This document shows, one piece after another, positions 28,011-51,571 of a DNA stretch of 64,000 bases. Source of the DNA: a virus (Duplodnaviria; Caudoviricetes); IMG/VR virus record IMGVR_UViG_3300031088_000782, positions 128,001-192,000 of that record; one strand, given 5' to 3'. The translations under genes and the position numbers were made by a program. Within the stretch, counting starts at the first letter, position 1. Each line of letters opens with the position of its first letter. The notes beneath the pieces are model-generated. The model was not told where the DNA came from. It saw only the letters and a program-made list of their open reading frames with translations, and did not search any database.

Positions 28011-28011
28011 C

Positions 28012-30541: not shown

Positions 30542-30542
30542 C

Positions 30543-32161: not shown

Positions 32162-32305
32162 CGATTTGACAAAACAATTTAACAATGATATGATAAAATT
32201 GTTGAAAGTTAGTCAAATTAACAAAAATAAATAATTGGCACTCGCTTAACCGTCCCGATAGTAAGAGCAAAGGTTGTAAATATTGCCGCCAATTATTTAA
32301 TATAT

Positions 32306-32378
32306 GCCCCTGTAGCTCAGTGGATAGAGCAATCGGTTTCTACCCGATTGGCCGGGAGTTCGAATCTCTCCAGGGGTG
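32306..32378 (+). tRNA. tRNA-Arg(TCT)
   Basis: Loop TTTCTAC. Confidence 0.92.
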
Positions 32379-32551
32379 CTTAGATGTAAATGCCGATTAG
32401 GTTAGTAACCTCCTGTGTGAGCACGACTTGGTAACGCCAAGATATTTACATCATTAAATTTTTGATAAGTTGAAAAACTTTGATAAAAAATTTGACAAAC
32501 GATATAAAAATTTGGTAAAATAAGTTTGTTAAAGAAAAAATAAAAGAATAT

Positions 32552-32625
32552 GGGGCTGTAGTCAAGTGGGTTAAGACATCTCACTCATAATGAGAGGATC
32601 GGGGGTTCAAGTCCCTCCAGCCCTA
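32552..32625 (+). tRNA. tRNA-Ile2(CAT), probable lysidine substrate
   Basis: CAT anticodon on an Ile-like body (GGGGCTG, paired 1:72, A73), directly upstream of tilS. Confidence 0.8.
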
Positions 32626-32639
32626 CCCATTAAATATTA

Positions 32640-32682
32640 AGCGGCAATCAGAATAATAAACGTTCTGATTGCCGCTTTTTTT
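32640..32682 (+). terminator. Intrinsic terminator
   Basis: AAGCGGCAATCAGAA/TTCTGATTGCCGCTTTTTTT. Confidence 0.85.
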
Positions 32683-32797
32683 GCTTCCTTTTTTACAATT
32701 GACAAATTTCTTCAAAAATGATAAAATATTAACAGATTAAGTAAGTATAAGAATAAATATAAGAAATTTTTGCAAAGGTTCGAAAAGGGGTTTTAAC

Positions 32798-33766
32798 GTG
32801 AGAAAAGATCATTACACTATGGTTGCTCGTAATTCAGTTAAAAACGCGCTACAAGACATTTCTGCGTCCTCTCACGTAGGTTTTGGTTGTTCTGGCGGCG
32901 CTGATAGTCTTGCTTTGATGTTTTCTCTTGCTACTCTTTACAAAAAGGACCGCGCTAAGCTGGTTCATGTGATTATTGTCGATCATCAACTTCAAGATAT
33001 TACTGCAGAAATTTCTCAAAAAACTGCTGATCTTGCAGAGTCTTTGGGATTCAATGCTCATATTATTCCTATTGAAATTGTTTCTACGAAAGAGGGCATG
33101 GAGAGCGATGCTCGTAAGGCTCGTTATGAAGCTTTTGAAAATGCTATTGGTGAATATAATCTTGAATCTTTTTTGATTGGTCATACTAAGACTGATCAGG
33201 CTGAGCAGGTTTTTCTTGGTATGCTTCGAGGTTCTGGGACAAAGAGCCTTTCTGGGATTCCTCAAAAGCGTGGAATTTTTGTTCGTCCTTTCTTAAATTC
33301 TCTTTCTCGTGAGGATACTCAAAAAGTTTGTGAAGAGAATAATTATGATTATTGGTGCGATCCTCATAATGACTCTACCGAATACCGTCGTGTTATTGTT
33401 CGCAAAATGATTAAAGATGTTCAAAAAGAAACTGGTCAAAGTATTGTAGATCCTCTTGTCAGAACTTCTCAAATGAATGCTGAAGATACAGAGGCTCTTG
33501 ATTTCTATGCTGATATGGCTTTTGATAATTTTGTCAAATCAAATTGGGACGTTAATGTTCTTGCTGATTCTCCTGCAGCTATTAGAAAACGAGCTTATCG
33601 TAAGATGATTATTGGGATTGGATCTGATAGTGATTCTGTTGATTTTGAATTGACTAATCGTGTGGATGATTTTGTTGTCAAGTGGAGGGGGCAAAAGGCT
33701 GTTTTCTTCTCTAATGGCGTTCGCGTTAAGAGGGACGATGGATGCTTAATTTTCTCTGTTGAATAA
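32798..33766 (+). CDS. tilS: tRNA(Ile)-lysidine synthase
   Basis: PP-loop GCSGGADS, DH, ARKARY, GHTKTDQAE, RPFL, DPHN. Confidence 0.93.
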   Translation: MRKDHYTMVARNSVKNALQDISASSHVGFGCSGGADSLALMFSLATLYKKDRAKLVHVIIVDHQLQDITAEISQKTADLAESLGFNAHIIPIEIVSTKEGMESDARKARYEAFENAIGEYNLESFLIGHTKTDQAEQVFLGMLRGSGTKSLSGIPQKRGIFVRPFLNSLSREDTQKVCEENNYDYWCDPHNDSTEYRRVIVRKMIKDVQKETGQSIVDPLVRTSQMNAEDTEALDFYADMAFDNFVKSNWDVNVLADSPAAIRKRAYRKMIIGIGSDSDSVDFELTNRVDDFVVKWRGQKAVFFSNGVRVKRDDGCLIFSVE

Positions 33767-33842
33767 TTGTTAAAATCATAATCCTCCGCGCTCAATTTGG
33801 TAAAATAATTGTAGTAAGTTATTAAATAAAAGAGCAGGAATT

Positions 33843-34704
33843 ATGGATATTGATTTTACAAAATATGGTTATATTTACCGAATGACTAATTTAGTAAATG
33901 GTAAAACCTATATTGGTCAACATAAAATCAAATCAAATGAAAAATTCCTCGATTATATGGGCAGTGGAAGAATCATTCGCCAAGCTATTCATAAATACGG
34001 TAAAGAAAATTTTTCAAAAGAAATTCTTGAATATGCTATAAACAAAGAAGAGTTAGACATCTTAGAGAAGAGTTATATTCATAAAGAAATTTTGAATAGT
34101 AAATCAGAATACAATATTGAATATAGTAGCTCTTCTTTACAATTTAAATTCAAAGAATTGTTAATAAACGATAATGATTTATTAAACTGGTATTTTGATA
34201 AAAATATGAGCTATAAAGACATTGCTTTAAAACTTGGTTGTTCTGAACCTTCTATTTATAGATATATGAACAAATTTCGTAAATCTGATGAAAGATTTAA
34301 AAATATTAAGCACGGAGATAACAGAGGAAAAAAGTGGATTTACTCCAGAAGAAAGAGAAAAAGCCATTAAGTCTGCTAAGGTAAAAGTTAAGTGCGAAAA
34401 TTGCGGACATCCAATTAGTAAATTTAATTATCCAAAGCATTATAATGTATGTATTGACGAAAACTTTACTTATGTTGATGGAATTAAGAAAAAGAAGTGT
34501 CCTGTAGATAACTGTGATACCTTAATCTACACTAAAAATAAAACTTGTAAAGAACATAGAACAGCAGGATCAAATTTGAATAATATAAAAACTCCTGAAA
34601 GTTTACGAAAAGCTGGACTTTCTTCAACGCATAAGAAATGGCACGTTAATAGAGATATAATTAATCCTAACTGTCCTTTATGCAATCCTGTTGACAAACC
34701 TTAA
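33843..34704 (+). pseudogene. Second GIY-YIG endonuclease, split by a +1 frameshift at the A6 run 34328-34333
   Basis: Paralog of 26348 across both ORFs (GDNRGK.. then KCENCG..KWHVNR); removing one A restores the frame. Confidence 0.8.
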
Positions 34705-34963
34705 TCAACTTTTTCAACAATCTTTCAACAACCTTTCAGAAACACAGAAATAGCCCGTATAGGCGATAGCTTGCTTAATTCGCACAGACTTACACAAATA
34801 TGTAAAACCCGCTTAAACAACCGTTTTTCAATGTTTCAACAAACGATTCATTAATCTATTTCAATACCCTCGAACGATGACAAAATTAATGAATATTGTT
34901 GAATAACATTGGTAAACTGCTATAGCAAGAAACTTTATCCATTAAGTATAGGAGAGGTAACAA

Positions 34964-35173
34964 ATGAGCGAAAATGCTGAAAATCTTAAAAAAGATATGG
35001 AAGACAATAAAGAGTTATTGAATTTAAGCGATAAAGAGAAAAAAGTATATGATGCTGCTTTCATTGCTATAGCGAATAAGCCAGTTCATAATTCTCCACC
35101 AATCATTCAGATAGCGCTTATGATTATTATTGCTATTGCTTTAATTATTGGAGTTGTTCAAATTGCAGGTTGA
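34964..35173 (+). CDS. Small membrane protein
   Basis: GGAGAGG RBS; C-terminal TM helix. Confidence 0.7.
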   Translation: MSENAENLKKDMEDNKELLNLSDKEKKVYDAAFIAIANKPVHNSPPIIQIALMIIIAIALIIGVVQIAG

Positions 35174-35384
35174 TGAAATTAATGAAGATGATGATTTTTT
35201 AATTTCAAAAGGTTTTATTATAACTATGTTAGCATTTATGTTTATTTTTATTGCTGTTATGATCCTTGCAGGAGTTATGGCAGTTAATAAGATATCTCCT
35301 AATAATCTTCTTGCTCATTTAATGCTTGTTGAAGATTTAGATTCTTGTAAACCAATTCTTAATGGTTTTTTGTTAAAATGCTAA
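35148..35384 (+). CDS. Small membrane protein (start uncertain)
   Basis: Hydrophobic GFIITMLAFMFIFIAVMILAGVMAV. Confidence 0.5.
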   Translation: MELFKLQVDEINEDDDFLISKGFIITMLAFMFIFIAVMILAGVMAVNKISPNNLLAHLMLVEDLDSCKPILNGFLLKC

Positions 35385-35617
35385 AAATATTTTGAAATGG
35401 ATTTGACTTTTTGAAATTAATTGTGTTAAGATAATATTGTCAAAGAGAGATTGAGGACTTGTTAGAGAAACAACGAGATAAAGATTTGACAAATAGTTTC
35501 AAAATGTGTTAGAATATTTTTTGTAAGACAGAAAAATTTTGATAAGTTAATAATGAAGCAAAGTTGATATTGTTAAAGTTATTTGATACAATATTAAAGT
35601 GATAAAAATTCACGTAT

Positions 35618-35691
35618 CGCGGGGTGGAGTAGTTAGGTAACTCGTATGGCTCATAACCATAAGATCGTAGGTTCAAATCCTACCCCCGCCA
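35618..35691 (+). tRNA. tRNA-fMet(CAT)
   Basis: CGCGGGG start, C1:C72 mismatch; loop CTCATAA. Confidence 0.9.
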
Positions 35692-35721
35692 CTAAATCTG
35701 ATTGAAAAATTGGATTTTATT

Positions 35722-35805
35722 GCCCTTGTGGTGGAATTGGTTTACACAGCGCACTTAAAATGCGTAACTCATAGCAGTTTGCGGGTTCGAGTCCCGCCAG
35801 GGGCA
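35722..35805 (+). tRNA. tRNA-Leu(TAA)
   Basis: Loop CTTAAAA. Confidence 0.92.
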
Positions 35806-35806
35806 C

Positions 35807-36382
35807 ATGATTAATTGGAATATGAGAACATATACAAAAGAAGATTTTATAAAAGCATGGAATTCTTCTGAATCAATAAGACAAGTATTGATTAAATTAG
35901 GGTTAAAGCCTATTGGTGGAAATTACCATACTGTAAAGAAAATGGCAAAAGAGCTAAATTTAAAAAATGATCATATGCTGGGGCAAGCTATAAATCGCGG
36001 AAAATCAATAGTTAATAGTAAATCTATTTATGATTACTTGACAAAAGACAGCCATATTTCTTCTTATCATTTAAAGAACAAACTCTTTAAAGCAGAAATT
36101 TTTAAAAAAGAATGTTCTATATGCTATAATAGTATGTGGATGGGCAAACCAATTCCACTTGAATTAGATCATAAGAACGGGGATCATTATGATAATCGTA
36201 TAGAAAATTTAAGAATTTTATGCGCTAATTGTCATGCTCAGACAAAAAATTATAGAGGTAAAAATAAAAAGATTCACAGGAATTTTAAAAACAATGCCAA
36301 CAAATGTTTAGTTTGCTCAAAAGAAATTTCAAGAAACGCCAAAAAATGCAGGAAATGCGAATCAAATTCAAGAAAAACATGA
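35807..36382 (+). CDS. HNH homing endonuclease
   Basis: PLELDHKNGDHYDNRIENLRILCANCH; ATG lies 2 nt after the tRNA-Leu discriminator. Confidence 0.9.
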   Translation: MINWNMRTYTKEDFIKAWNSSESIRQVLIKLGLKPIGGNYHTVKKMAKELNLKNDHMLGQAINRGKSIVNSKSIYDYLTKDSHISSYHLKNKLFKAEIFKKECSICYNSMWMGKPIPLELDHKNGDHYDNRIENLRILCANCHAQTKNYRGKNKKIHRNFKNNANKCLVCSKEISRNAKKCRKCESNSRKT

Positions 36383-36504
36383 ATAATTAATTTTAATCAA
36401 TGGGATATGGTATTTTTGCTGTATCCTATTTTTTTACTTCATTTAGAAAAATATTAAATATTATGACTTGATTGACATTAACTATGGCAAAAGGATTTTT
36501 AACA

Positions 36505-37473
36505 ATGAGCAAATTTCATATTTCAAAAGATGGGATAGCAAGACAGTGCCGTGCGCAAACACCTGATGCTTGCCGCGCCACAAAATCAGACCAAAAAGAA
36601 CACTATGAAACAAGAGAAGAAGCAGAAAAAGCTTACGAGAAAAAGAATACAACAGTAAAAAGTTTAAGTAAGAAAAATAAGAATGATTTTGTTACTAAAA
36701 AAGTTTCTTTAAAAGAACAACTTGCGAAAAGTGAAGAAAAAGTTAGGGAAAGTTTTTCTGAACATCAGCATCACAATGATCAACAATTAGATAAAATAGC
36801 TAAACGAAATCAAACAACAACAGTAGATCTTATCAATAATTATAATGATTCTACTGATAATTATAATAAGTTTCTCAATAATAGATACGAAAATTATAAA
36901 AATGATAGTAAAATTCCATTAGAAAAATTGTCAAATGAAGTAAAAGCCGGAGAAGACTTTATTTATCATAGCAGGAAAATAGCCAGCACATCTGACGAAA
37001 GAATGGAATCATATCTAAAAAATATTAGATTATACAAAAATAGTTTGAATTTGGAAAACAAGGCTTTGAGAAAAGAAATTGAAAAAGTTGAGAAATCTGG
37101 AAGAATTCGTAGTGCTTTTGATAATGATTTCAAAACTGAAAAAGAGAATAAATTAAATGAGCTTAATAATAGATTAAAAGATAACAGAAGTTCTATTGTA
37201 AAAGCAATAAATTCAGAAGAGTCAGTTGCTGCAGGATTACAAGCAAAAAGGATTAAAATTTTAGAATCCAAAGGTTATAAGCCTGTTACTGCATATAGTG
37301 GAATGAATATGTCTTTTCATCCACAAGGTCCAGAGTTTAGATATACTTGCCCAAATTGTGGAATTGAACATACTAATAGATTGAGAAGACTTCAGTATGT
37401 TCAAGAAGTTGGATATACAGATGCTTGTAGATCATGCCGTAAAAGAATGATTTTACCTGTTACACCTGAATAA
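36505..37473 (+). CDS. Hypothetical coiled-coil protein with N-terminal H-C-C-H leader and C-terminal Zn ribbon
   Basis: MSKFHISKDGIARQCRAQTPDAC...HYETREEA; CPNC...CRSC. Confidence 0.8.
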   Translation: MSKFHISKDGIARQCRAQTPDACRATKSDQKEHYETREEAEKAYEKKNTTVKSLSKKNKNDFVTKKVSLKEQLAKSEEKVRESFSEHQHHNDQQLDKIAKRNQTTTVDLINNYNDSTDNYNKFLNNRYENYKNDSKIPLEKLSNEVKAGEDFIYHSRKIASTSDERMESYLKNIRLYKNSLNLENKALRKEIEKVEKSGRIRSAFDNDFKTEKENKLNELNNRLKDNRSSIVKAINSEESVAAGLQAKRIKILESKGYKPVTAYSGMNMSFHPQGPEFRYTCPNCGIEHTNRLRRLQYVQEVGYTDACRSCRKRMILPVTPE

Positions 37474-37536
37474 TCTAATCTACTTTCACTATGGTGTTTA
37501 GCCCCATTTTACAATAATAATGATACTGACTCTCTA

Positions 37537-38097
37537 ATGGACAAGTATCAAAAAGAACATGGTAAATTAAAAGATCACGAAGATTTTGAAAAATATCGTG
37601 AATGGCGAGATGAATATGTTTATCAAGAATTAAAAAAGATCGAAGCATCTAAAGACAAAAATTATAATAATATAAGAAAAATGACAGCAGAGGGAGTAGA
37701 AGCACTTGATGACAAGCTAAGTGATTTAACATCTCGTGCTGTTGAATTTGAACAATCAGAATATGTTAATGAAGATGGCGAAAAAATTACTTATGATGTA
37801 ATTACTTTTAATGATTTGAGCGATATCAATTACAACATTTACAAAAAGAATGGACAATATTTTATTAAATCAGACTATCTTATGAAAAATAAAGATGGAT
37901 ATAAACCTATCACTAATGAGTTAGACACAGATAGACTATTCTCTAACAGCGAAGAATTTATGAACAATACTCATGGAGATGACTTCACTTACAACAAAAA
38001 TGAAGCTAATTCAAATAAATTATATATTAAAGATTTTGCAAACAAACATTTCTCTGAAGCTTCTGAAATATTAAAGAAAAGGTATAATATTGAGTAA
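37537..38097 (+). CDS. Hypothetical protein, in frame with the upstream ORF across a single TAA
   Basis: 186 aa; no clear RBS; frame open back to TAA 37471-37473. Confidence 0.7.
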   Translation: MDKYQKEHGKLKDHEDFEKYREWRDEYVYQELKKIEASKDKNYNNIRKMTAEGVEALDDKLSDLTSRAVEFEQSEYVNEDGEKITYDVITFNDLSDINYNIYKKNGQYFIKSDYLMKNKDGYKPITNELDTDRLFSNSEEFMNNTHGDDFTYNKNEANSNKLYIKDFANKHFSEASEILKKRYNIE

Positions 38098-38572
38098 ATA
38101 ACATTAATTAAAAAGAAAGAGAAGTCTTATGCATAAAAACAATATTCCTACAGTAAAAGAAGTTTTAAAAGATTTTAATAATGTTGTGGAACGATGGAAG
38201 AATCATGAAATGAATGATTCTGACATGGTTGATTTTATATTCGTCTAGAGGGTCGAAAATTGAACAAAGTTAATTCTGTTTGTTATTGTAATGAACCAGA
38301 TGTGTGTTGCGTTGCTCATAATAATCATAATTCAGAGATTCATAAAGGATGTATTTTAAGGTAATTTTGTTATTATTAATAAAATAAGTTATGGATATAT
38401 ATGTTAGAATTAAAATATTGGAAAAGTTCGACTAGTTTCAAAATAAGAAAGATAAGGTGACACAATTTTAAAGAATATTAGTTGTGTCACTTTATCTCTT
38501 TATCCTTGATCTTTTTGGAATAATTCATTAATTATATCAGTTAATAATTTTACTCTCAAAAGGACGGATAAA

Positions 38573-39163
38573 ATGGAACATCATAATAATAATTTTCAAC
38601 ATAATCATATTAACCACGAAGATCATTCTCATCATAGTGGTGGTCATGAAGGAATGGCTCTTTCAGCAACCCTCCATTGTTTAACGGGTTGCGCAATTGG
38701 CGAAATCTTAGGAATGATTATTGGGACTTCGCTTGGTCTTCATAATTTATCAACTGTTATTATTTCAATAGGATTAGCTTTTGTTTTTGGTTATGCTTTA
38801 TCAATGAAACCTTTATTGATAAATGGAATTAAATTAAACCAAGCTTTAAAACTTGTTCTGGTGGCTGACACTTTATCAATTCTCTCTATGGAAATTGCAG
38901 AAAATTTAATAATGCTTGTTATTCCTGGTGCAATGTCTGCAGGTGTTTCTAATCCTATGTTTTGGGTGTCTATGAGTATCGCTTTTCTTGTCGGTTTTGC
39001 AGTTGCTTATCCTGTTAATAAAGTTTTGCTTAAGAAAAATAAAGGACATGCTATTACTCATGAAGCCACTGGACATCATGAGATGAATAATGCTCCACTT
39101 ATCTTTGCTTTAGTATCATTTATGTTAGGTGGTTTAATTACATCACTTTTAGGAAATTTTTAA
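38573..39163 (+). CDS. DUF4396-like His-rich membrane protein (metal-related)
   Basis: His-rich N-terminus; ATLHCLTGCAIGE; AYPVNKVLL. Confidence 0.85.
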   Translation: MEHHNNNFQHNHINHEDHSHHSGGHEGMALSATLHCLTGCAIGEILGMIIGTSLGLHNLSTVIISIGLAFVFGYALSMKPLLINGIKLNQALKLVLVADTLSILSMEIAENLIMLVIPGAMSAGVSNPMFWVSMSIAFLVGFAVAYPVNKVLLKKNKGHAITHEATGHHEMNNAPLIFALVSFMLGGLITSLLGNF

Positions 39164-39217
39164 ATATTATTTAGAAAAATATAATATATTAATATTATTT
39201 AAATTAGGAAAAAGAAA

Positions 39218-40138
39218 ATGACTAAATATCACATAAATCCTGAAACAGAAAGAGTAAATATCTGTCGTGCTGAAAAGAAGTGCCAGTTTGCAGACGATCA
39301 AGGAAATGAACCACCACACTTTAACACTAAACAAGAAGCGCGCGCCTATAACGAAAATAATCTTAAAAAAGAATTAGGAACTTTCTCAACTATTTCAAAA
39401 ACAAAAAATAGTAAAAAGAAAATTAACACTTTGACAGAAAACGAAAATATTGAATTAACAAATAAAATGGTTAATGAATTTAATAAAATGTATAAATCTT
39501 TATCTAATACAGAACAAAGAGCAATTGATTATTACACTTTTTGTGGATCATCTTCAATGAATAGACTATTACATGGAACCCCAAGAGAAGATGAAGAAGC
39601 TTCAGTAGAATCCACTATGAAACATATTAAAAATCTTGATAATGTTATAAATAGACACTACGAGGAACACAAAGGAGAAAAGAAAACTTTGTATCGTTAT
39701 CTTTCATTAGACAAGAATACTGATGTTAATGAATTTATAAAAGAAAATTTTCAAGAAGGTAAAGAATATTCTGATACCGGGTTTATGAGCACTACTGAAG
39801 ATATTTCTTTTATTGCTGGATATGCTAAAAAGCACAGTAGAAACAGAAAGTTTGTTATTTTAGAGATGGAAACAGATAAAGGAATAAGTTGCCAAAAACA
39901 AGAAGAGCAAACTGGAACTATCCAAAGCTTTGAAAAAGAAAGATTATTACCACGAAATATGAAATTTAAAGTTGATGAAATTTTTGAATCAAATGTTAAA
40001 ATTGATAAATCAAGAGAAAAACTTCATAAACAATTTGGGGGAAATGGTTATATGTTAAGCGAACACATTAATTATATTCCATCTAAAAAATTCAATTTTA
40101 TCAAACTAATAGAACAAGAGGACAATAAAAGTGACTAA
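39218..40138 (+). CDS. VIP2/Alt-like mono-ADP-ribosyltransferase with H-C-C-H leader
   Basis: R-S-EXE signature: LYRY, GFMSTT, FEKERLLPRN. Confidence 0.88.
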   Translation: MTKYHINPETERVNICRAEKKCQFADDQGNEPPHFNTKQEARAYNENNLKKELGTFSTISKTKNSKKKINTLTENENIELTNKMVNEFNKMYKSLSNTEQRAIDYYTFCGSSSMNRLLHGTPREDEEASVESTMKHIKNLDNVINRHYEEHKGEKKTLYRYLSLDKNTDVNEFIKENFQEGKEYSDTGFMSTTEDISFIAGYAKKHSRNRKFVILEMETDKGISCQKQEEQTGTIQSFEKERLLPRNMKFKVDEIFESNVKIDKSREKLHKQFGGNGYMLSEHINYIPSKKFNFIKLIEQEDNKSD

Positions 40139-41567
40139 ATATCATATAAGCGATTCAGGTAAAGTAGTCATTTGTCGTGCAACTAAAACTGTTTGCCCAA
40201 AAGAAAATTTTGACAGTATTGAAGATGCTGAAAATTTTAAAGAAACTCTATACAATAATACTATTCCAACTATGTCTAAACAGTCCAATAAGGGACTTAG
40301 GGAAGCTGAAAAGTATTATGGCGGTAAGTTCCTCACTTATCATAATATATCGCTTGAAAAAGGCGTAGAAAGCGTTTTAGATGATTTGAAAAAGATAGGG
40401 AACCCATTAATTGTTGGCGGGGCTGTAAGAGATTCGTTTGTAGGATCAGAAAATAAAGATATAGATATCGAAGTTCATAAAACAGATATAGACACACTTG
40501 TTAAAACATTGAAAAATGATGGATATATAGTTGATGAAGTAGGAAAACAATTCGGTGTTCTCAAAGTTTCTAAAAAAGGTGTTGTGAATGACTTAGACAT
40601 ATCTGTTCCTCGTAAAGAAAATCGTTTAGGAGCAGGTCATCGATCTTTTAATGTTGAAATGGATGAAAATATGACCGTTCAAGAATCTGCGGAAAGAAGA
40701 GATTTCACTTTCAATGCTGTCATGTATGATCATACAAGAAAAGTTATCATCGATCCTTCTGGTGGAAAGAATGACTTAAACAATAAAGTCATTCGTCATG
40801 TTTCTGAGAAATTTTCTGAAGATCCTTTAAGAGCTTTGAGAGGATTTCAGTTTGCAGGTAGATTTGATATGACTGTTGCTCCTGAAACAGCAACTTTATG
40901 TAAAAAATTGAGAAATGAATATGAACACTTGTCAATAGAAAGGGTGCAAGAAGAGTGGGGTAAATTCTTCACTAAAAGCGCACACCCAGCAAAAGGAATT
41001 CAAGCTTTAAAAGATATGGGATGGAATGACACTATACCCGGACTTCAAAAAGCATTAGACAATTCTTTTACAAAAGAATCTCTGAATAATCTCCCTACTG
41101 TCAGCAAGCAGAATAAAATAATTTTCGGATCTGCTGCTATCGCTCGAAATATGAATAATAACGAAAGAAAAAGTTTTATCTCTTCAACAGTCATTGGAAA
41201 TAAAGAGCAATTAAAAACTTATACTCTTAGCAGTTTTGACAATAATGAAGCCAGAACTTCTTATGAAAGAAAAAAAATTGCTAAAAAACTTGAGAAAACA
41301 GGCTTTACCTTTAGAGATTATCATAATTTCTCTCAAATGAATAATGACAGCGAAGGTGTTAAATTAAGTGAGAAAGCTGTTGCTGAAGGTTTAGCGGATG
41401 GCCCTGAAAAAGATTTGATTGCTGGTAAAGATATTTTTTCTTTGACTGATAAAAAACCTGGTCCTTGGATGGGTAAATTATTGAATGAAATAAGAGACAA
41501 ACAGTATCAGGGTGCTTTTTTAAATAAAAATGAAGCAATGATGTTTGCAAAAAGTAGAATACAGTGA
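40131..41567 (+). CDS. cca: Class II tRNA nucleotidyltransferase (CCA-adding) with extra N-terminal leader
   Basis: VGGAVRD, DIDIEV, RRDFTFNA, EDPLRALR, ERVQEEW, PGPWMG. Confidence 0.9.
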   Translation: MTKYHISDSGKVVICRATKTVCPKENFDSIEDAENFKETLYNNTIPTMSKQSNKGLREAEKYYGGKFLTYHNISLEKGVESVLDDLKKIGNPLIVGGAVRDSFVGSENKDIDIEVHKTDIDTLVKTLKNDGYIVDEVGKQFGVLKVSKKGVVNDLDISVPRKENRLGAGHRSFNVEMDENMTVQESAERRDFTFNAVMYDHTRKVIIDPSGGKNDLNNKVIRHVSEKFSEDPLRALRGFQFAGRFDMTVAPETATLCKKLRNEYEHLSIERVQEEWGKFFTKSAHPAKGIQALKDMGWNDTIPGLQKALDNSFTKESLNNLPTVSKQNKIIFGSAAIARNMNNNERKSFISSTVIGNKEQLKTYTLSSFDNNEARTSYERKKIAKKLEKTGFTFRDYHNFSQMNNDSEGVKLSEKAVAEGLADGPEKDLIAGKDIFSLTDKKPGPWMGKLLNEIRDKQYQGAFLNKNEAMMFAKSRIQ

Positions 41568-41634
41568 TATAATAGTTTTAATCAACAATTGACGAATATA
41601 TTTAATAATATTTTTGAATAAATCGTCAATTTAT

Positions 41635-41721
41635 GGAAGTGTGGCTGAGTCCGGTTTAAGGCGTTCGTCTCGAAAGCGAAAGTAGGTAACACTACCGCAG
41701 GTTCAAATCCTGTCACTTCCG
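41635..41721 (+). tRNA. tRNA-Ser(CGA)
   Basis: Loop CTCGAAA. Confidence 0.92.
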
Positions 41722-41766
41722 CATAATTGTTGTTGATAAATGATTTTATAAAGTGAGGATCTAACT

Positions 41767-41961
41767 ATGATTAACAAAGATTATAGAAAAACTGTTTATT
41801 TGTCTTTGGAAGAAAGAAAATCTATTGCAGATGAAGCTTTAAGGAAAAGCGGGTTCTCTTTTGAAGAATTGAAAAATCAATCTAAAAACAGACGATTTGA
41901 AACATTGCAAGCTAAACTTTCTTGGATGGTTATTTCAGCATACAAAAAACAGTCAAGATGA
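41767..41961 (+). CDS. Small hypothetical protein
   Basis: GAGG RBS; 64 aa. Confidence 0.6.
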   Translation: MINKDYRKTVYLSLEERKSIADEALRKSGFSFEELKNQSKNRRFETLQAKLSWMVISAYKKQSR

Positions 41962-42045
41962 AAATTAAAAAAATAAGATATAATTTATTTAGTTTTATTT
42001 GACAAAATGTGATATAATTAAATAAAATGAATATAAATGTATTAA

Positions 42046-42118
42046 GCCCTTATAAGCTAATAGGATAAACTACCTCTCTCCTAAAGAGGATTTTTGGGTT
42101 CGAATCCCAATGAGGGCA
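42046..42118 (+). tRNA. tRNA-Arg(CCT)
   Basis: CCTCT-CTCCTAA-AGAGG. Confidence 0.9.
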
Positions 42119-42162
42119 CAATATGACAATTGCAATTTTTATTGGCGGGAGGTAAGATTATA

Positions 42163-42453
42163 ATGAAAAAAGTTCGAGAGGACATGAAGCCAATACCTTC
42201 GCCTTCTTTGCCGAAAATTTCTGAAATGACTAAAAATGATGCTAAAATAGCTATTGAAAAATTTTTAGTTGAATTCGAAAGTGTTATTGAAAAAAATCAC
42301 AAAAGAAACAAAAAGGCGCTCAAATATTGTATTCTTTGTGGAATTCGCAAAGGGTTTCTCATGTCTTGCGGAAGAAAAAATGTCAAATGTGCTTCATGGT
42401 GTCCAAGACCTTATTGGGAGATTGACAAAAGCGGAAATTATATTAAACAATAA
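42163..42453 (+). CDS. Hypothetical Cys-rich protein
   Basis: GGGAGG RBS before ATG 42163; CILC..C..C..C. Confidence 0.6.
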   Translation: MKKVREDMKPIPSPSLPKISEMTKNDAKIAIEKFLVEFESVIEKNHKRNKKALKYCILCGIRKGFLMSCGRKNVKCASWCPRPYWEIDKSGNYIKQ

Positions 42454-42586
42454 TTGATAAAAATTTTCAAAGAAACACCAGTTAAATAATGATTAATTTC
42501 AATAAAGTTTGATATACTTATTAAAATAAAACTAACAATTATTTTTTAAAGCAATATGTAATAGATTCATTTATAGAAAGGCTACA

Positions 42587-42793
42587 ATGATGGCAAAAGT
42601 AACTTTTTCCGAAACAGAAGGAAAGCAGCAGAAGTATTCTTATACAGTGGATTATACTCTTCCTAAAGGATCATGGGATGCACGAGAAGTGCCTTCTGAG
42701 GTAGTTCAAGAGCTTGAAGCTGTTGTTCAGTCAGCCGATTGCCCTGATTTCATGTATTCACCAAGTGGAAATGTTTTAGTAACAGTTAGCTAA
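42587..42793 (+). CDS. Small hypothetical protein
   Basis: GAAAGG RBS; 68 aa. Confidence 0.65.
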   Translation: MMAKVTFSETEGKQQKYSYTVDYTLPKGSWDAREVPSEVVQELEAVVQSADCPDFMYSPSGNVLVTVS

Positions 42794-42910
42794 AAACAAA
42801 ACAATTAAAATATTAAATTTCAGGATAGGGACATTAATAAGTTTTATGGCTTTGACTTATTAATGTCCCTATCCTGCTTCATCATATAATTAAATAATTG
42901 ATATAATTAT

Positions 42911-43378
42911 ATGTCGATGAAGATATCTTACAAAACAATTTTAAAGAAACAGGAGCAAATTTTGTCAATTTTCAAAAGAAAACACCAAGAAGTCAAATAT
43001 AAAGATAACCGTTTCATCAGGAAAGAAAGAAAACTTTTTTCTGCCTATATTGAAATCGAACCGAAAATAGAAAATGCAAAAACTGGATACACAGTGAGAT
43101 ATTTTGAAGACACCGTTACCAAAGGATGGGAATCTTGCTTATACCGTCAAGGAAGCGAACGAATTAAATTAGCTAATGACCAAATGGTTTATAAAGGAGT
43201 TATCGAAATAAGGGCAAAAGATAAAGAAACTCTTCACGAAAGAATAAATAAAGTTATGGCGAATTCGAGTGAAGAAGCAGAAGTATCTTATAATCCCAAT
43301 AAACAAACTTTTTTATCTCGCACAACTCAACGATTTATCAAAATATCCTCTCAAAAAGAAGCAAATACTCCAGTATAA
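42911..43378 (+). CDS. Hypothetical protein
   Basis: 155-aa basic ORF. Confidence 0.65.
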   Translation: MSMKISYKTILKKQEQILSIFKRKHQEVKYKDNRFIRKERKLFSAYIEIEPKIENAKTGYTVRYFEDTVTKGWESCLYRQGSERIKLANDQMVYKGVIEIRAKDKETLHERINKVMANSSEEAEVSYNPNKQTFLSRTTQRFIKISSQKEANTPV

Positions 43379-43472
43379 AAGCTCAATATTGATTTCATAA
43401 CAAATTTATGTTAAAATAATTGTGTAGTCATATTTCACAATGTTGATAAAATTTAATATATGTCTACATGAT

Positions 43473-43546
43473 GCCTCCATAGCTCAATTGGATAGAGCGT
43501 CTGACTTCGGATCAGAAGGTTGTGGGTTCGAATCCTACTGGAGGTG
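43473..43546 (+). tRNA. tRNA-Arg(TCG)
   Basis: Loop CTTCGGA. Confidence 0.92.
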
Positions 43547-43672
43547 CAATGAATTTAATCGAGAAAGAAAACAGAATCGCACTTTTATTAAAATTATATT
43601 AATTTCATTTTTGAAATAAAAGAATAAAAATAAATAATAAGTTCGACAAATAAATCCATACGGAGATGAAAT

Positions 43673-44302
43673 ATGGAACAAACGAAAAAAGAATCAATAA
43701 ATGCACGAAGAAAAGTATTAAACAAAAGAAGAGCAGAAGCATTCTATCCTACACTTACAAAAGGGAAACACAAAATTCTTACAGAAATTTTCGACATTCC
43801 TCTTTATTACACAAAACGAGATGAAGAAACAGACATCGTTCTTTATGGAGAGGGATACAACAGATTCCCCCTCACTGTTATACCTATCAAACAGGCGATT
43901 GCATCACATATTTGTACATACTTACAGAATTCTCATGAAAATGCCTTAGAAGGACTTCTGCAGTCTTTTATAGTCAGAGGGTATACAGATAATAACACAG
44001 ATTTGATGAACAGTTTAAACAAATTTTCAGAAAATATTTACAAGCCCTCTTCTTCTGAGAGTAGCGTTGAATCAAATCCTCTATTGCATTGGCAAGACGG
44101 ATTGAGAGTTTCATACAAACCAAGCAAAAACAGCGCTTATACCAATCGAAACATCAGTGCAGAACAATTTGTATTGTCTAAAATCGGGGAATACATTCTT
44201 CAAGAACGACCTGAACTTATGAAAGATATGTTCACTTCTGAAGAAGAAAACATTTTGACGATTTTCAAAGATTCATCAAGATACGATAAGATAGACAAAT
44301 AA
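43673..44302 (+). CDS. Hypothetical protein
   Basis: GGAG RBS; 209 aa. Confidence 0.7.
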   Translation: MEQTKKESINARRKVLNKRRAEAFYPTLTKGKHKILTEIFDIPLYYTKRDEETDIVLYGEGYNRFPLTVIPIKQAIASHICTYLQNSHENALEGLLQSFIVRGYTDNNTDLMNSLNKFSENIYKPSSSESSVESNPLLHWQDGLRVSYKPSKNSAYTNRNISAEQFVLSKIGEYILQERPELMKDMFTSEEENILTIFKDSSRYDKIDK

Positions 44303-44407
44303 TAATTCAAGTTTCACAAAAACGATATAATAAAAGGGCAGAATCGAAAATCTGTCCTTTTATTATGACAAAATTCAACAAAAAGCAAAAACAACAAAGG
44401 TAGGAAA

Positions 44408-45382
44408 ATGGTTAAAGAAATAGAAGAGAAGACTTTTGATTACAAAAACGTCAGGCTGTTAGCTAAAAAATGCATTATCGAATCTCGATCACAAGCAGAC
44501 GTAACTGTTAGATTAGGAAACAGAGTTTTCAATAGCCCAGCATTGCCTGCAAATATGTCTACAATTATTGATGAAACCCTTGCACAATGGTTAGCTGAAA
44601 ATAATTTTTTCTACGTGATGCATAGATTTGATGTAGATCCTGTTGAATTTGTCAAAAATTTCAACAGCAAAAAACTTTTCACATCTATTTCATTAGGGAT
44701 TAAAGAAATAGATTACACACATGTTGACAATCTTAAAAAAGAAAACCTATCTCCTGATTACATTACTATTGATGTTGCTCACGGACATTCTGATTATGTG
44801 ATCAAAATGATTAAATACGTTAAAAACCATCTTCCAAAATCTTATGTTATTGCGGGAAATGTGGGTACCGCAGAAGGTGCTCTTGAATTAGAAGAAGCGG
44901 GGGCAGATTGTTTGAAGATTGGGTTGGGACCTGGTTCAGCATGTTTAACTTCACCTAACACTGGTTTCGGAACACGAGATCATCAATTATCCTCTATACT
45001 TAAAATTTCTGAAGTTTTAAAAACCGCAGATTTGATCGCTGATGGCGGAATTAGAGAATATGGAGATATTGCCAAATCAATAGCTTTTGGTGCTGATATG
45101 GTGATGATCGGTGGTATGTTTGCAGGTCATGACGAAAACCCCGGAGATCTTATCGAAGATGAAAATGGTGAAAAGTTTAAAATATTCTTTGGTAGTGCAA
45201 GTGAGCACCAAAAAGGCGAATCAAAGCATGTCGAAGGAAAGAAGATGCTTGTTTCATACAAAGGATCTATCTCTTCAACTTTGCAAACAATTACAGAAAA
45301 CTTGCAATCATCTGTTTCTTATGCAGGAGGGAAAGAGCTTAAAGATTTAAGAAACGTAGACTATGTTTTAGTTGATATGTGA
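44408..45382 (+). CDS. guaC: GMP reductase
   Basis: [53 protein letters not shown]. Confidence 0.93.
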
Positions 45383-45483
45383 AAATTTTGACAAAATTGA
45401 TATAACTTAATAACAATTTTCAAAAAGGCTGGTGCAATTTAAATAAAATTTTGCACCAGCCTGAATTTATAAGGAGAGAAAAA

Positions 45484-46227
45484 ATGGACACTTCGAAAAT
45501 TGAAACTAAACCTGCTTTTGCCTATACAGAGACAGAAAACAAAACCAATACTTTCACTGGTGGAAAGCCATTCATCAATGATGATTTCAAATTTCCTTAT
45601 GATAAGGACGGTAATCCACTTGTGTTCTTCTGCCAATTAGATTTAAGTGAGGTGGATCAAAGAATAATCAATCATCTTCATCTCCCTGAAAGGGGATTTA
45701 TACAGTTCTATCATGGTGGAGACGATCTTATGGGAATGGACTTTGATTCAGACAATTATATGGACAATAGTGTTTCGAAAATATTATATCTTGATAAAGC
45801 GTTTGATGAAGATTTTGATATGCCAAAAGAATACAAAGAAGACATGACCGATTATTCTCCTTTGGAAAATTCTATCAACAGAGACAATAGAAGGATTTTT
45901 TATAAAGGCGAATATATTGATATGCTTCCTTTTCCAAATTCTAACGATAATCCAGCTATCACAGAAGAAGACAGCTACGGAGAAGAGTATATGGATTATT
46001 ATGAAAAATCTAACGAAAAATATTATGAATTGTATTTAGGAGGATATCCACATTTTGTTCAATGGGACTTTAGGAACAAAGATCGCGAAATGAGCCTTCT
46101 TCTTGGCTCTGAAAGCGGTAACACTATAATGTGGGGAGATACAGGGGCTGGAGGATTTTGGGTTCCTCAGAATAATCTTGAGGAGCAAGATTATTCGCAA
46201 TCTTTCATCTTCTGGGATTGTGGATGA
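45484..46227 (+). CDS. DUF1963/YwqG-like protein
   Basis: GGKP, PLVFFCQLDL, GGYPHFVQ, MWGDTG, WDCG. Confidence 0.85.
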   Translation: MDTSKIETKPAFAYTETENKTNTFTGGKPFINDDFKFPYDKDGNPLVFFCQLDLSEVDQRIINHLHLPERGFIQFYHGGDDLMGMDFDSDNYMDNSVSKILYLDKAFDEDFDMPKEYKEDMTDYSPLENSINRDNRRIFYKGEYIDMLPFPNSNDNPAITEEDSYGEEYMDYYEKSNEKYYELYLGGYPHFVQWDFRNKDREMSLLLGSESGNTIMWGDTGAGGFWVPQNNLEEQDYSQSFIFWDCG

Positions 46228-46398
46228 TTAATAATTTATTAATGAACAGGATAATAGTCGCTAATCTACTTAAAAGGTGCTATCCTGTTCATTAAGTAAA
46301 AAATATGACTTTTATTCAATCGCAGTAGTTCTACCAACTATATCTTTGTTTTAATTTGGTAGAATAAGAATTATCAAATAACTTCAAAACCAAGATAG

Positions 46399-47124
46399 GT
46401 GAATTTTATGAACATTTCTGAATCAAAACTTCCTGAATGGTTGAAAAAAGAACTTCCTGAACCTCAACTTCCATCAGTAATTTCATGGACAGAAGAAGAT
46501 GGATATATAGTTTTTGATGAAATTCATGAAGAAACAGACAATTTTGAAACTCTTGAAGAGGCATATGATTTTACTGAAAATTATCTTAAAACTGAAGTAA
46601 TTTTTGATGAATCAATTCCAGAATTAAACGAAGAAAATAATAATAATTTTTCAAGAATGCTATTTGGTACTCCTGATGATCGCGGAAATTCAAGATTGCT
46701 ATTTTCCTCACCAGATAAACAAAAAATTGAAGACCTTGAAGAAGTATACGAAAATTTTCTCAACCTCGCAGAAAAATATTATAACAACAAAAACGACTTC
46801 ATGACAGCTTATGATTTTGTTGATACACATCCTGCTTTTTGGGTAAAACTCTTAAAAGACAAAGAAAAAACATTTCTCTGGGAAACTGAATCTCATTGTA
46901 TAAAAATCTGGTCAATGCCGATTAAAAACGATGATAATATGTTTTGGGCTTTGGAAACAGGTATGCACATTGATCCAGATTATGTTGAACATTATCACGA
47001 CTGGCGAATTGATGCATCTGGTAGTACTATTGAAGAAGCTTATATAAATCTTGCTGCAAATATTGATAAATACTACAATCTTGATGGAACTGAAAAAGAA
47101 ATAGAGACAGATGACGAAGAATGA
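46399..47124 (+). CDS. Acidic hypothetical protein
   Basis: 241-aa ORF overlapping the deaminase start. Confidence 0.7.
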   Translation: MNFMNISESKLPEWLKKELPEPQLPSVISWTEEDGYIVFDEIHEETDNFETLEEAYDFTENYLKTEVIFDESIPELNEENNNNFSRMLFGTPDDRGNSRLLFSSPDKQKIEDLEEVYENFLNLAEKYYNNKNDFMTAYDFVDTHPAFWVKLLKDKEKTFLWETESHCIKIWSMPIKNDDNMFWALETGMHIDPDYVEHYHDWRIDASGSTIEEAYINLAANIDKYYNLDGTEKEIETDDEE

Positions 47125-47599
47125 CGAAAACTCAAAAAGGAATGACATTCTGACATGGGATGAAACTTTTATATCTATTGCACATGTTGTCAAACAACGT
47201 TCAAAAGATCCAGTTACTCAAGTAGGAGCATGTATTGTATCTTCGGATAACAGAATTTTGACGTTGGGATACAATGGTGCTCCCAACGGTTTTGATGATG
47301 ATGACTTTCCTTGGGGCAAAACAGGCGATGAAATTTCGACAAAATATCCTTATGTTGTTCACGCTGAAAGAAATGCCATTTTGAATTTCAGGGGTTCTTT
47401 AAGAGAATTCAATAACGCAACCATTTATGTTACTCTTTTTCCTTGCAATGAATGCGCAAAAGAAATCATTCAAACAGGAATAAAAGAGGTAGTTTATGAA
47501 AAAATGCCTGATAAAAGAAAAACATCAACAGAAGCGTCTATTATCATGTTCGAAAAAACAGGTGTGAAAATACGAGAAATTGGCAGTTATGAAATATAA
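47111..47599 (+). CDS. dCMP deaminase
   Basis: RSKDPVTQVGACIV, GYNG, HAERNA, PCNECAK. Confidence 0.9.
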   Translation: MTKNDENSKRNDILTWDETFISIAHVVKQRSKDPVTQVGACIVSSDNRILTLGYNGAPNGFDDDDFPWGKTGDEISTKYPYVVHAERNAILNFRGSLREFNNATIYVTLFPCNECAKEIIQTGIKEVVYEKMPDKRKTSTEASIIMFEKTGVKIREIGSYEI

Positions 47600-47688
47600 C
47601 AAACATTTTTAAAAATAATTTTGAAAAGTTTTTTAATTTTCGATCTTTTAAATAAAAATGTGGTATACTGATATTAGAAACTAAACAT

Positions 47689-47762
47689 CGCGGGATGGAG
47701 TAGTTAGGTAACTCGTGTGGCTCATAATCACAAGATCGGGGGTTCAAATCCCTCTCCCGCCA
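47689..47762 (+). tRNA. tRNA-fMet(CAT)
   Basis: CGCGGGA start, C1:C72 mismatch. Confidence 0.9.
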
Positions 47763-47771
47763 CAACAAAAA

Positions 47772-49600: not shown

Positions 49601-50296
49601 ATGAAAATAAAATATATTGGAAGGTTTGTTTCATCAACATTGATTGTAGGCTTGTTATTATCAGGATGCACAAGTAACAATACACCTGATGACGAACAAA
49701 CTGCTACCTCTGCACCAACTCAGCAGGAAACAACAGAACAGTCAATTAACAAATTCTTCACTGACTATTACACAACATGGATCAACAATCCTGATTCAGT
49801 AGAAGATTCTATTAAAGTTGACGAAGCTTTTATGGAAATTTTCGGGCCAGAAAATTATGAAGGTTTATATGATACTGCGAATGATCCAGAAAAATTATTT
49901 AAAAAATTAGATGATAAACAAATTAAGGAATTAGCAGATAAACTTGAAGAAATTAATAAAATTTCTAAATTTTATGATTTCCGTAAAACTTCTGATAAAG
50001 ATAGAGCTTATGTTAATTTAACGGCTATAACTTATTCTCAAATGCTTCAAGGAGCAAGCGGGAAAAAAGTTAATGTAACTGTTTCTTCAAATGATAATTT
50101 TGCAATAAAAGATAACTCAATAACAATTCAATCCTCTGATGTAATTTTTGAATTAGACGGAACAAGATTACCTAATAGCAATGAAGAATCAGGAATTGAA
50201 AAAACAAAACTTAATCGTGTTGATGGAAAATGGAAAATTGATGCGTCTGACATGATGAAACAAGTAAACAAAAAGCTCAAAGAAAATAAAAAGTAA
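49601..50296 (+). CDS. Lipoprotein
   Basis: Lipobox LLSGC. Confidence 0.8.
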   Translation: MKIKYIGRFVSSTLIVGLLLSGCTSNNTPDDEQTATSAPTQQETTEQSINKFFTDYYTTWINNPDSVEDSIKVDEAFMEIFGPENYEGLYDTANDPEKLFKKLDDKQIKELADKLEEINKISKFYDFRKTSDKDRAYVNLTAITYSQMLQGASGKKVNVTVSSNDNFAIKDNSITIQSSDVIFELDGTRLPNSNEESGIEKTKLNRVDGKWKIDASDMMKQVNKKLKENKK

Positions 50297-50334
50297 TTTT
50301 AATCTTTAAAAACTGTGGGTGAAGATTGATTAAG

Positions 50335-50363
50335 TTGATCTTCACCCACAGTTCTGATATAAT
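50335..50363 (+). promoter_or_regulatory. sigma70/SigA-type promoter for the ffs-ssrA pair
   Basis: TTGATC-17 nt-TATAAT, overlapping the 3' arm of an upstream hairpin. Confidence 0.75.
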
Positions 50364-50368: not shown

Positions 50369-50458
50369 TGTAAGAAGCTCAGGTGTGATTTTTTACTCAA
50401 CGGTTCAGGTTGGGAACAAAGCAGACCAAGTAGAATTGAACAGGTTGGACTTCTTACA
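50369..50458 (+). ncRNA. ffs: SRP RNA (4.5S type)
   Basis: Helix-8 signature GGTTCAGG-TTG-GGAA-CAA-AGCAGACCAAG (E. coli GGUCAGG-UCC-GGAA-GGA-AGCAGCCAAG); closing stem TGTAAGAAG/CTTCTTACA. Confidence 0.85.
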
Positions 50459-50463
50459 TATAA

Positions 50464-50813
50464 GGGGATGCATTAGGTTTCGACTTATGATCTGATTATT
50501 AAAAAGCAGGTAGCCATTAAGAAGTTGGCTTTAAAAAATCTTAAACAAATAATTGCAAACGCAAATAAAAACGCTTACGCACTAGCTGCCTGAGCCGTTC
50601 ATATTAGATATATTGTTCTCGATACTAATATGAACGTCATTTTAAGAGAACACTTTACCTGAACTAAGTTTCATAAGGATAAAGTAAAAGAAACTAAACT
50701 AAATATAATTTTTGGCAACAGTTGAAATATTTAGTTAATAAACAGTTGCGAAACCTGTAATTCTTTTTAATATGACAATCGTAAGGACAGGGGTTCGACT
50801 CCCCTCATCTCCA
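50464..50813 (+). ncRNA. ssrA: tmRNA; tag (A)NANKNAYALAA* at 50555-50593
   Basis: GGGGATG...GGTTTCGAC 5' end; GGGGTTCGACTCCCC T arm; CATCTCC-A with G3-U70; tag ends YALAA. Confidence 0.93.
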
Positions 50814-50848
50814 CGATTATTTTTATTTCAAAAACAAGGAGAGCTATT

Positions 50849-51571
50849 ATGAAAAACATAATTGATGAATCAGAAAAAATAGTTGTCCTCACTGGAGCAG
50901 GAGTTTCCACAGAATCAGGAATTCCAGATTTTCAACAAAGAGATGAAAACTGGGAACATGACGTTGATAGGGAAATAGCAACATCTATATGGTATTTCAA
51001 GCAAGAACCGCAAAAATTTTGGAATATTTATAAAGAAATTTTTGGCAGTAAAGCATATGCCAGACCTAACAGATTCCATTATTTTTTAGCCTCATTGCAA
51101 AACAATCATGATATCACTATTGTCACACAAAATGTTGATGGATTACATACAAAAGCCGGAAGCGAAAAAGTTATCGAATCTCATGGGAATCTCAATTATG
51201 TCATATGCTTAAATAAAAATTGTAGACGAAAATACCCTTATGAAAAGTTTTCGAATGATACTCTTCCTACATGCCCTTCTTGTGGAAATATCCTCAAACC
51301 CAATGTGTCTTTATTTGGGGAAGGGATTAATGGATTCTCCGAGGCTAGGGATCTGATCATTGATTCTGATTTGTTAATAATCGCTGGGACAAGCCTAAGA
51401 GTTGGGCCATTTAATGAGCTTCCTCTCTTGTCTCAATACTACTCTCCTCATACGAAAAGATTATGGATAAACAAAGAGACTCCTGAAGAGATAGGCTTAA
51501 TGGAAGAACTGACTTTTCATAAATCATTCAATGGAACCTTTGAAAATTTCATTGACACCTATCATCAATGA
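50849..51571 (+). CDS. Sir2/CobB NAD-dependent deacylase
   Basis: TGAGVSTESGIPDF, TQNVDGLH, SHG, Zn-binding Cys pairs, GTSL. Confidence 0.92.
   Translation: MKNIIDESEKIVVLTGAGVSTESGIPDFQQRDENWEHDVDREIATSIWYFKQEPQKFWNIYKEIFGSKAYARPNRFHYFLASLQNNHDITIVTQNVDGLHTKAGSEKVIESHGNLNYVICLNKNCRRKYPYEKFSNDTLPTCPSCGNILKPNVSLFGEGINGFSEARDLIIDSDLLIIAGTSLRVGPFNELPLLSQYYSPHTKRLWINKETPEEIGLMEELTFHKSFNGTFENFIDTYHQ

Follow-up and report, generated by a model that had tools for sequence, protein, structure and literature searches.

The stretch of DNA analysed here, referred to as the window, comprises 64,000 nucleotides (bases 128001-192000) of the 309,534-bp IMG/VR record IMGVR_UViG_3300031088_000782, which that database files as a complete provirus. 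Within it, a gene for the small bacterial type of signal recognition particle (SRP) RNA (ffs/4.5S-like; 50369..50461) lies between a sigma-70-type promoter (50335..50363) and a gene for transfer-messenger RNA (tmRNA, ssrA; 50464..50816), all on the plus strand. The assignment of the SRP RNA draws on a match to an Rfam model, on its predicted fold, on an orthologue in a closely related contig (L087) and on a consensus fold common to ffs genes. An earlier reading made from the letters alone, termed here the sequence-only reading, had proposed that both RNAs are served by one promoter and that a phage- or plasmid-borne SRP RNA is rarely if ever reported.

The SRP RNA gene and its transcription unit

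In an Rfam covariance-model search, RF00169 (Bacteria_small_SRP), the model that the sequence-only reading had suggested for checking its hairpin, aligned to 50369-50461 on the plus strand from its first to its last position (1-97 of 97), with a score of 42.7 bits against a gathering cut-off of 40 and E-values of 8e-6 across the whole 64-kb window and 8e-8 in the local 651 nt. The 93-nt stretch folds into a single long hairpin (50369-50458) with a minimum energy of -24.4 kcal/mol and a z-score of -3.1, and none of 200 dinucleotide shuffles folds as well. The predicted apex holds every element of the Ffh-binding helix 8, and the signature reads, letter by letter and in place, as it had been described: a GGAA tetraloop (50413-50416) is closed by UUG/CAA pairs, below which follow a symmetric loop of 5'-CAGG (50406-50409) and 3'-AGCA (50420-50423), a helix of GGUU/GACC and an asymmetric loop with 5'-CAAC (50398-50401) opposite a single A (50428). 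Alignment with three genuine bacterial ffs genes gave 20 consensus pairs common to all, 14 of which have changed on both sides in a compensatory manner. The hairpin counts about 40 stacked layers, which is length enough for a distal site, and a motif search of the 64-kb window found no second SRP-type motif. By every feature checked (model score, helix 8 and covarying hairpin), the predicted RNA belongs to the small SRP RNA family.

The likeness to bacterial 4.5S RNA extends from the single hairpin of about 93 nt, the GGAA loop, the CAGG/AGCA loop and the asymmetric loop with its A-rich 5' side and single 3' A to a full-length model match above cut-off and to covarying helices common with genuine ffs genes. 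The gene differs from ffs, however, in sitting on a mobile element that has neither Ffh nor FtsY, in lacking a terminator of its own and sharing its promoter with a tmRNA 5 nt downstream, in its AU-rich and irregular distal part, which outside the apex is unlike host ffs genes, and in its restriction to one sub-lineage of the element family.

The promoter, with 10 of 12 matches plus a TG, ranked first among the 10 promoter-like sites that a scan of 1.5 kb brought up. It consists of a -35 box TTGATC (50335-50340), a 17-nt spacer with TG at 50355-50356 and a -10 box TATAAT (50358-50363), as the sequence-only reading had it, and ends 6 nt ahead of the SRP hairpin, so that transcription is predicted to start near G50370. 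The tmRNA, likewise named beforehand, was identified by RF00023 (133.4 bits, cut-off 47) and by ARAGORN; it encodes the tag ANANKNAYALAA, has a G3:U70 pair in an acceptor pairing that reads GGGGAUG/CAUCUCC, and does not encode CCA. It is separated from the final base pair of the SRP hairpin by the 5-nt single-stranded linker UAUAA (50459..50463), which we infer to be at once the RNase P leader of the tmRNA and the 3' trailer of the SRP RNA. Our scan of the plus strand between the -10 box and the tmRNA found no terminator-like and no second promoter-like site. Because the tmRNA is conserved in every relative of the element and has no other promoter here, RNA polymerase would have to read through the SRP hairpin, and the SRP RNA would be transcribed together with the tmRNA. 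The proposal of a shared promoter is borne out in that one promoter serves both RNAs here, and in the relatives the same promoter drives the tmRNA directly.

The unit is flanked upstream by a lipoprotein gene (49601..50296, plus strand; taken from the open reading frame list and an alignment), whose 231-aa product has a signal peptide and an LSGC lipobox with G22-C23 invariant among homologues, and directly downstream, outside the RNA unit, by a Sir2-family gene (50849..51571, plus strand; PF02146, E 7e-40). Behind the lipoprotein gene a 14-bp inverted repeat, CTGTGGGTGAAGAT ... ATCTTCACCCACAG (50313..50351, plus strand), can be read from the sequence; L087 also has it, with a single change to G.U. 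The lipoprotein gene may be terminated by this repeat, which the terminator scan did not call because it has no T run. With its loop and 3' arm the repeat extends over the -35 box of the promoter, so that the end of lipoprotein transcription and the start of the RNA operon may be linked through one structure.

Relatives, insertion and divergence

Relatives of the element were found through its DnaE and through the upstream lipoprotein. The synteny of lipoprotein and tmRNA genes, with the promoter between them, is retained in all relatives found, and the -10 box TGATATAAT is invariant across all that were aligned. The SRP RNA is present in the same place (43.7 bits) in L087, whose lipoprotein is 94% identical to that of the window. 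It is absent from L088 and L090 (lipoprotein identity 56-57%), from L010 and L011 (31%, measured for L010) and from L331, L332 and L333 (32-36%), three distant relatives that came from a protein-guided scan; L089 (59%) is uninformative, its contig stopping just past the -10 box. A search for further orthologues with a pattern of the distal stem had no match in JGI metagenomes. In L088, L090 and L010/L011 the -10 box is followed by the tmRNA within about 20 nt with no SRP RNA between, and the records of L010 and L011 contain none anywhere else, nor does the relative G001, a 344,889-bp record with inverted terminal repeats. Variants of the SRP RNA were also met in two further public runs. The most parsimonious history read from these alignments is one gain in a young sub-lineage, by an insertion of about 95 nt into a short tmRNA leader.

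As to the source of the insert, the exact 20-nt apex pattern matched more than 120 of 185,579 species genomes, mostly Lachnospiraceae with a few other groups. With the 93-nt RNA as query, BLAST found no similar sequence in PLSDB, and in GenBank phages the apex alone matched, over 31 nt. The donor cannot be named, since the likeness to cellular sequences ends after the apex of about 40 nt. We rejected the idea that the locus is the remnant of a phage attachment (att) site, as the SRP RNA gene is whole, sits far from the record's ends and is not accompanied by an integrase.

Comparison of the window with L087 shows 4 changes in the 93 positions of the SRP RNA (4.3%) and a divergence of 4.2% in the tmRNA, as against 77 of 471 third codon positions (16%) in the two flanking genes. 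Divergence of the SRP RNA is thus 3-4 times lower than that of the flanking third codon positions (Fisher p = 0.002), although such statistics are only indicative because the region is mosaic. Three of the four substitutions fall in stems, where pairing is kept or improved: a U-A pair replaces a C.A mismatch (C10U), C-G replaces U.G (U11C) and G.U replaces A-U (A27G). The first of these, C10U, is also seen in two other public runs. Taken together, the substitutions are indicative of an SRP RNA under constraint and evolving as slowly as the tmRNA.

The carrier element and helix-8 hairpins of phages

All Rfam-recognisable RNA genes of the 309-kb element lie within the window, namely the SRP RNA, the tmRNA and 66 tRNAs, the last in one array on the plus strand (17134..47763; ARAGORN and Rfam) that is near-complete with many duplicates; in the remaining 245 kb no Rfam family was matched, rRNA and RNase P RNA included. 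Inside the array ARAGORN also reported a suppressor-type tRNA with anticodon UUA (reading UAA) and a tRNA-like gene with a 2-nt "anticodon" (24966-25037 and 29485-29554). Six-frame searches of the record found no Ffh or FtsY (PF00448), SmpB, YidC or SecY. Throughout the record G+C stays uniformly near 35%, and terminal repeats were not found.

The record carries genes of the kind known from large phages (rIIA, primase, DnaB with inteins, ribonucleotide reductase, topoisomerase II and NAD ligase) and many homing nucleases. Its DnaE is split (52832-58366) into a PHP/N-terminal gene and a C-terminal gene with a clamp-loader gene between them. In L087 the C-terminal gene (11992 onward) encodes 1282 aa with Hint/intein domains and in the window 924 aa, by which an intein was gained or lost between close relatives. 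Genes for conjugation comprise a type IV secretion system (T4SS) coupling protein (TrwB_AAD_bind and TraG-D_C), TcpC and two T2SSE (Tad/PilT-type) ATPases, together with a VirB6-like protein (weak TrbL/VirB6 match). For a relaxase, the Replic_Relax model reached only 22.1 bits, under its cut-off. Capsid, terminase and portal families (PF05065, PF03237 and PF04860) had no match in six frames of the record. Scanning 40 of the 57 open reading frames of at least 450 aa with PHROGs or Pfam gave none of the three either, a result that could miss divergent virion genes, and the "terminase" PHROG matches fall on intein parts of helicase and ATPase genes. The element also encodes a considerable set of exported proteins: the signal peptidase I at the window start that the sequence-only reading had pointed out (Peptidase_S26, E 4e-14), a PASTA protein, two G5-domain proteins, one of them with an NlpC/P60 hydrolase domain, a class A penicillin-binding protein and the lipoprotein directly upstream of the RNA genes.

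This gene content makes it probable that the record, although catalogued as a virus, is a giant conjugative plasmid-like element from a Gram-positive host; it may instead be a phage whose virion genes escape recognition. That it is a mobile element and no host chromosome, as had been supposed, agrees with the missing rRNA, Ffh/FtsY, SmpB, SecY and YidC and with the mobile-element genes present. Signals as to the host conflict: DnaE is nearest to Streptomyces plasmids and phages (34-39% identity), the penicillin-binding protein to Arthrobacter megaplasmids (32%), and the coupling protein has weak Firmicutes matches, while the G5, PASTA and TcpC domains indicate only that a Gram-positive host is likely. 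One public run in which the element occurs (X15) also holds a 403-nt contig with a 33-nt SRP apex (window 50396-50428; 2 differences) in G+C-rich flanks unlike the element, which could be the ffs of a high-G+C organism, possibly that of the host.

We also scanned the helix-8 motif in two spellings over 2.9 million IMG/VR contigs. Among the matches listed, most well-paired ones belong to a single family of host ffs genes, located where proviruses of 35-41 kb end. In the first scan, 32 of 62 matches (L012-L073) are one identical ffs sequence, GGTCAGGGGAGGAATCCAGCAGCC, many copies of which lie about 70 nt or less from the provirus contig end, and this position points to a widespread prophage family that integrates into ffs. 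The same matches include nine phage contigs in which helix-8 hairpins of 40-50 nt, on the tRNA strand, lie inside tRNA arrays, with the motif at L033:1686-1727, L045:642-685, L018:607-700 (minus strand), L235:3021-3044, L243:10635-10658, L256:681-704, L295:1161-1184, L315:79-102 (minus strand) and L326:9161-9184. Six of these nine listed hairpins (L033, L045, L235, L243, L295 and L326) are 6-16 nt upstream of a tRNA; that of L018 is 88 nt upstream of one, and those of L315 and L256 are 18 nt and 103 nt downstream of one. In L018, L033 and L326 the hairpin stands directly behind a sigma-70-type promoter, TTGACA-17-TAnnAT. The neighbouring genes are of phage type, for instance RNA ligase and NadR/PnuC.

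Three of these mini-hairpins were compared with Rfam and matched SRP-clan models below cut-off (33-38 bits, E 1e-3 to 2e-5); BLAST of two found nothing in GenBank phages. Among the 182 pattern matches listed, apical pairing is complete in all nine that lie within 110 nt of a tRNA and in 62 of the 173 others (p = 1.5e-4), and the closing helices of the nine, which lie outside the search pattern, are longer than those of chance-like matches listed (p = 1.5e-5). The mini-hairpins are too short for normal SRP RNAs, and the succession of promoter, SRP module, short spacer and RNase P-cut RNA in phage contigs points to the same design as in the window. Eight further contigs, mostly of 4-6 kb (L254, L264, L287, L300, L306, L309, L311 and L328), have a well-paired helix-8-like motif with a GCAA loop (GGCTCAGGAAGGCAAyTTAGCAGGCC) in tRNA-free surroundings, which may be a coding coincidence or another SRP-like hairpin of small phages.

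Function, alternatives and meaning

We consider it probable that the element carries a genuine SRP RNA gene which was inserted before the tmRNA and whose product is co-transcribed with it, released by RNase P and bound by host Ffh, so as to add to or replace the SRP RNA of the host. The sequence-only reading had suggested that the element may supply or redirect co-translational secretion as well as ribosome rescue. Our view builds on what the sequences show, namely the family membership of the RNA, the layout of the genes, the history of the insertion and the slow, pair-preserving divergence. An ffs paralogue would have arisen in the sub-lineage as the insertion of about 95 nt between the -10 box and the tmRNA +1. 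Transcription from the sole sigma-70-type promoter would start at the base of the SRP hairpin, near G50370, and continue into the tmRNA; as the start lies at the hairpin base, no 5' processing of the SRP RNA would be needed. A cut by host RNase P at 50463/50464 would mature the tmRNA and free the SRP RNA with a 5-nt trailer. Besides tRNAs, the classical substrates or partners of RNase P include 4.5S RNA and tmRNA, and the release proposed here would use the same enzyme as their maturation in E. coli, where RNase P trims the 5' leader of 4.5S RNA, whereas on the element the 5' end would be that of the primary transcript and the RNase P cut at the tmRNA +1 would set the 3' side. The released hairpin would then bind Ffh, which must come from the host because the element has no Ffh or FtsY, and would supplement or replace the host SRP RNA pool while the exported and membrane proteins of the element are expressed. 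Clients would include the signal peptidase I, the lipoprotein, penicillin-binding proteins, cell-wall hydrolases and parts of the T4SS and Tad systems, and extra or replacement SRP capacity for such exported proteins is the most likely benefit.

Several observations weigh against this view. The margin of the Rfam match is narrow, with 11 non-canonical pairs in the model alignment, and this narrow pass is explained by the AU-rich and irregular stems of the RNA. The signal of constraint amounts to four substitutions, and these lie in a mosaic region whose genes differ greatly in their divergence; conservation of the SRP RNA is not significantly higher than that of the upstream intergenic region (p = 0.22), and the fourth change in L087 turns the near-invariant CAGG of the Ffh-binding loop into CAGA. 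The gene is confined to a very shallow lineage of two assemblies and two run variants. GTDB species representatives include no near-identical cellular donor, similarity being limited to the apex of about 40 nt. Searches of public runs found no RNA library holding the locus, and four runs yielded contigs only. Lastly, compatibility with host Ffh is assumed from the universality of helix 8.

Among the alternatives, the one that survives best, though we hold it to be unlikely, keeps the same molecular steps and differs in the selective reason: the SRP RNA would be a spare part or anti-defence cargo, replacing host RNA that is depleted or cleaved in conflict, for example by RNases or toxins of the host or of competitors, with no boost to secretion. 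The SRP RNA indeed lies in the only RNA-gene region of the element, beside the near-complete tRNA set and the tmRNA, and the phage mini-hairpins are also found inside tRNA arrays; such arrays of phages and giant plasmids are discussed as counter-defence against tRNA-targeting nucleases (PMC10264068, PMC12803027). The relatives of the element, however, manage without an SRP RNA gene. No defence system or toxin directed at SRP RNA is known to us, and our literature searches found none.

It is somewhat more doubtful that the RNA acts as a decoy or re-programmer of Ffh, forming an SRP of altered activity in which Ffh is sequestered or the timing of GTPase activation is changed, so that membrane-protein biogenesis of the host is damped or the proteins of the element itself are favoured. 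Truncated E. coli 4.5S RNAs bind Ffh but are without the distal site that triggers GTP hydrolysis, and the nine phage hairpins among the matches listed are only about 40-50 nt long, with helix 8 alone. In the same direction, the element supplies the RNA with no Ffh or FtsY, and the distal hairpin, AU-rich and irregular, is unlike host ffs beyond the apex. Yet the RNA in the window is of full length (model 1-97 of 97), and its roughly 40 stacked layers leave room for the distal site; a conjugative element that lives with its host, moreover, would gain little by harming an essential SRP.

We give about the same small weight to the SRP sequence being a passenger, that is, a piece of cellular ffs which entered the tmRNA leader by illegitimate recombination, is transcribed as leader and discarded, and has not yet decayed. 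A recent acquisition confined to one lineage, the marginal Rfam score and the G-to-A change of L087 in a conserved loop would all suit such a piece. Mobile elements do pick up ffs sequence: phages are known to use ffs as an attachment site (PMC12540744), and among the IMG/VR matches listed most SRP motifs are at provirus ends. The insert is nevertheless complete from the first to the last model position and no fragment, its beginning coincides with the predicted transcription start and only 5 nt separate its end from the tmRNA, and no integrase or att-like duplication adjoins it. It has diverged 3-4 times slower than flanking synonymous sites with stem changes that keep pairing, no near-identical donor is found among GTDB species representatives, where likeness is restricted to the apex of about 40 nt, and independent elements have the same layout. 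That the DNA is cellular, from a reduced genome or a mis-binned piece of chromosome with the ffs of the organism itself beside ssrA, is very improbable: the "provirus" label in IMG/VR and the want of a capsid, Terminase_6N or portal Pfam match speak for it, but 309 kb of uniform composition hold no rRNA, RNase P RNA, Ffh, FtsY, SmpB, SecY or YidC and do hold 66 tRNAs with many duplicates in a single array, abundant inteins and homing nucleases, a split DnaE, rIIA and T4SS genes, and the relative with inverted terminal repeats is a 345-kb record without SRP RNA.

Giant plasmids and huge phages with tRNA arrays and tmRNA have been described before: the Bifidobacterium megaplasmid pMP7017 (PMC10832533), huge phages (PMC7162821) and giant linear plasmids of mycobacteria with tRNA array units and tmRNA (PMC12803027, PMC5966550). 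The element resembles these in being large, with a tRNA array, a tmRNA of the expressed type and no SmpB, and in the plasmid cases also in its conjugation apparatus. An SRP RNA is unreported in those papers, and the element adds one to the tmRNA unit; the terms "signal recognition" and "4.5S" do not occur in PMC7162821, PMC7824862 and PMC10832533, nor does "SRP" in the first two. In another known case, ffs is the prophage attachment site of Enterococcus phage phiEf11 (PMC12540744). There, too, a mobile element is physically tied to an SRP RNA sequence, but the gene is that of the host and the phage carries a short att core only, whereas in the element the gene is whole, has a promoter and lies about 131 kb in from the nearer end, with no integrase next to it. 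Full-text literature searches found no published SRP RNA encoded by a phage or plasmid, an absence that is no proof of novelty. The rarity supposed by the sequence-only reading accords with this and with the BLAST searches, empty in PLSDB and limited to the 31-nt apex match in GenBank phages. The RNA itself is familiar; its genomic role and operon are, as far as these searches reach, unreported.

To our knowledge, SRP RNA is regarded as a universal, chromosomal and single-copy housekeeping RNA. The known cargo of mobile elements includes tRNAs, tmRNA, ribosomal proteins and translation factors, and we know of no SRP RNA among it. An element-borne ffs would therefore extend the core machinery that mobile elements supply or manipulate from translation to membrane-protein targeting. 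More tentatively, the window and the phage hairpins may belong to an undescribed class in which unrelated mobile elements place SRP RNA modules in RNase P-processed RNA operons, releasing Ffh-binding RNAs that would take over, tune or back up host targeting. The class would span giant plasmid-like elements, huge phages and ordinary tRNA-bearing phages, with modules from the full-length 4.5S type to 40-50 nt, most often directly upstream of a tRNA or tmRNA. Catalogues of phages and plasmids are as a rule annotated for no RNAs other than tRNA and tmRNA, and SRP RNA genes are missed as a result; the same layout in nine unrelated phage contigs among the matches listed suggests that the strategy is general and has escaped notice. 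Should Ffh bind the short hairpins, these would represent minimal SRP RNAs or inhibitors of natural origin, which bears on the long-standing question of what the distal part of 4.5S RNA contributes.

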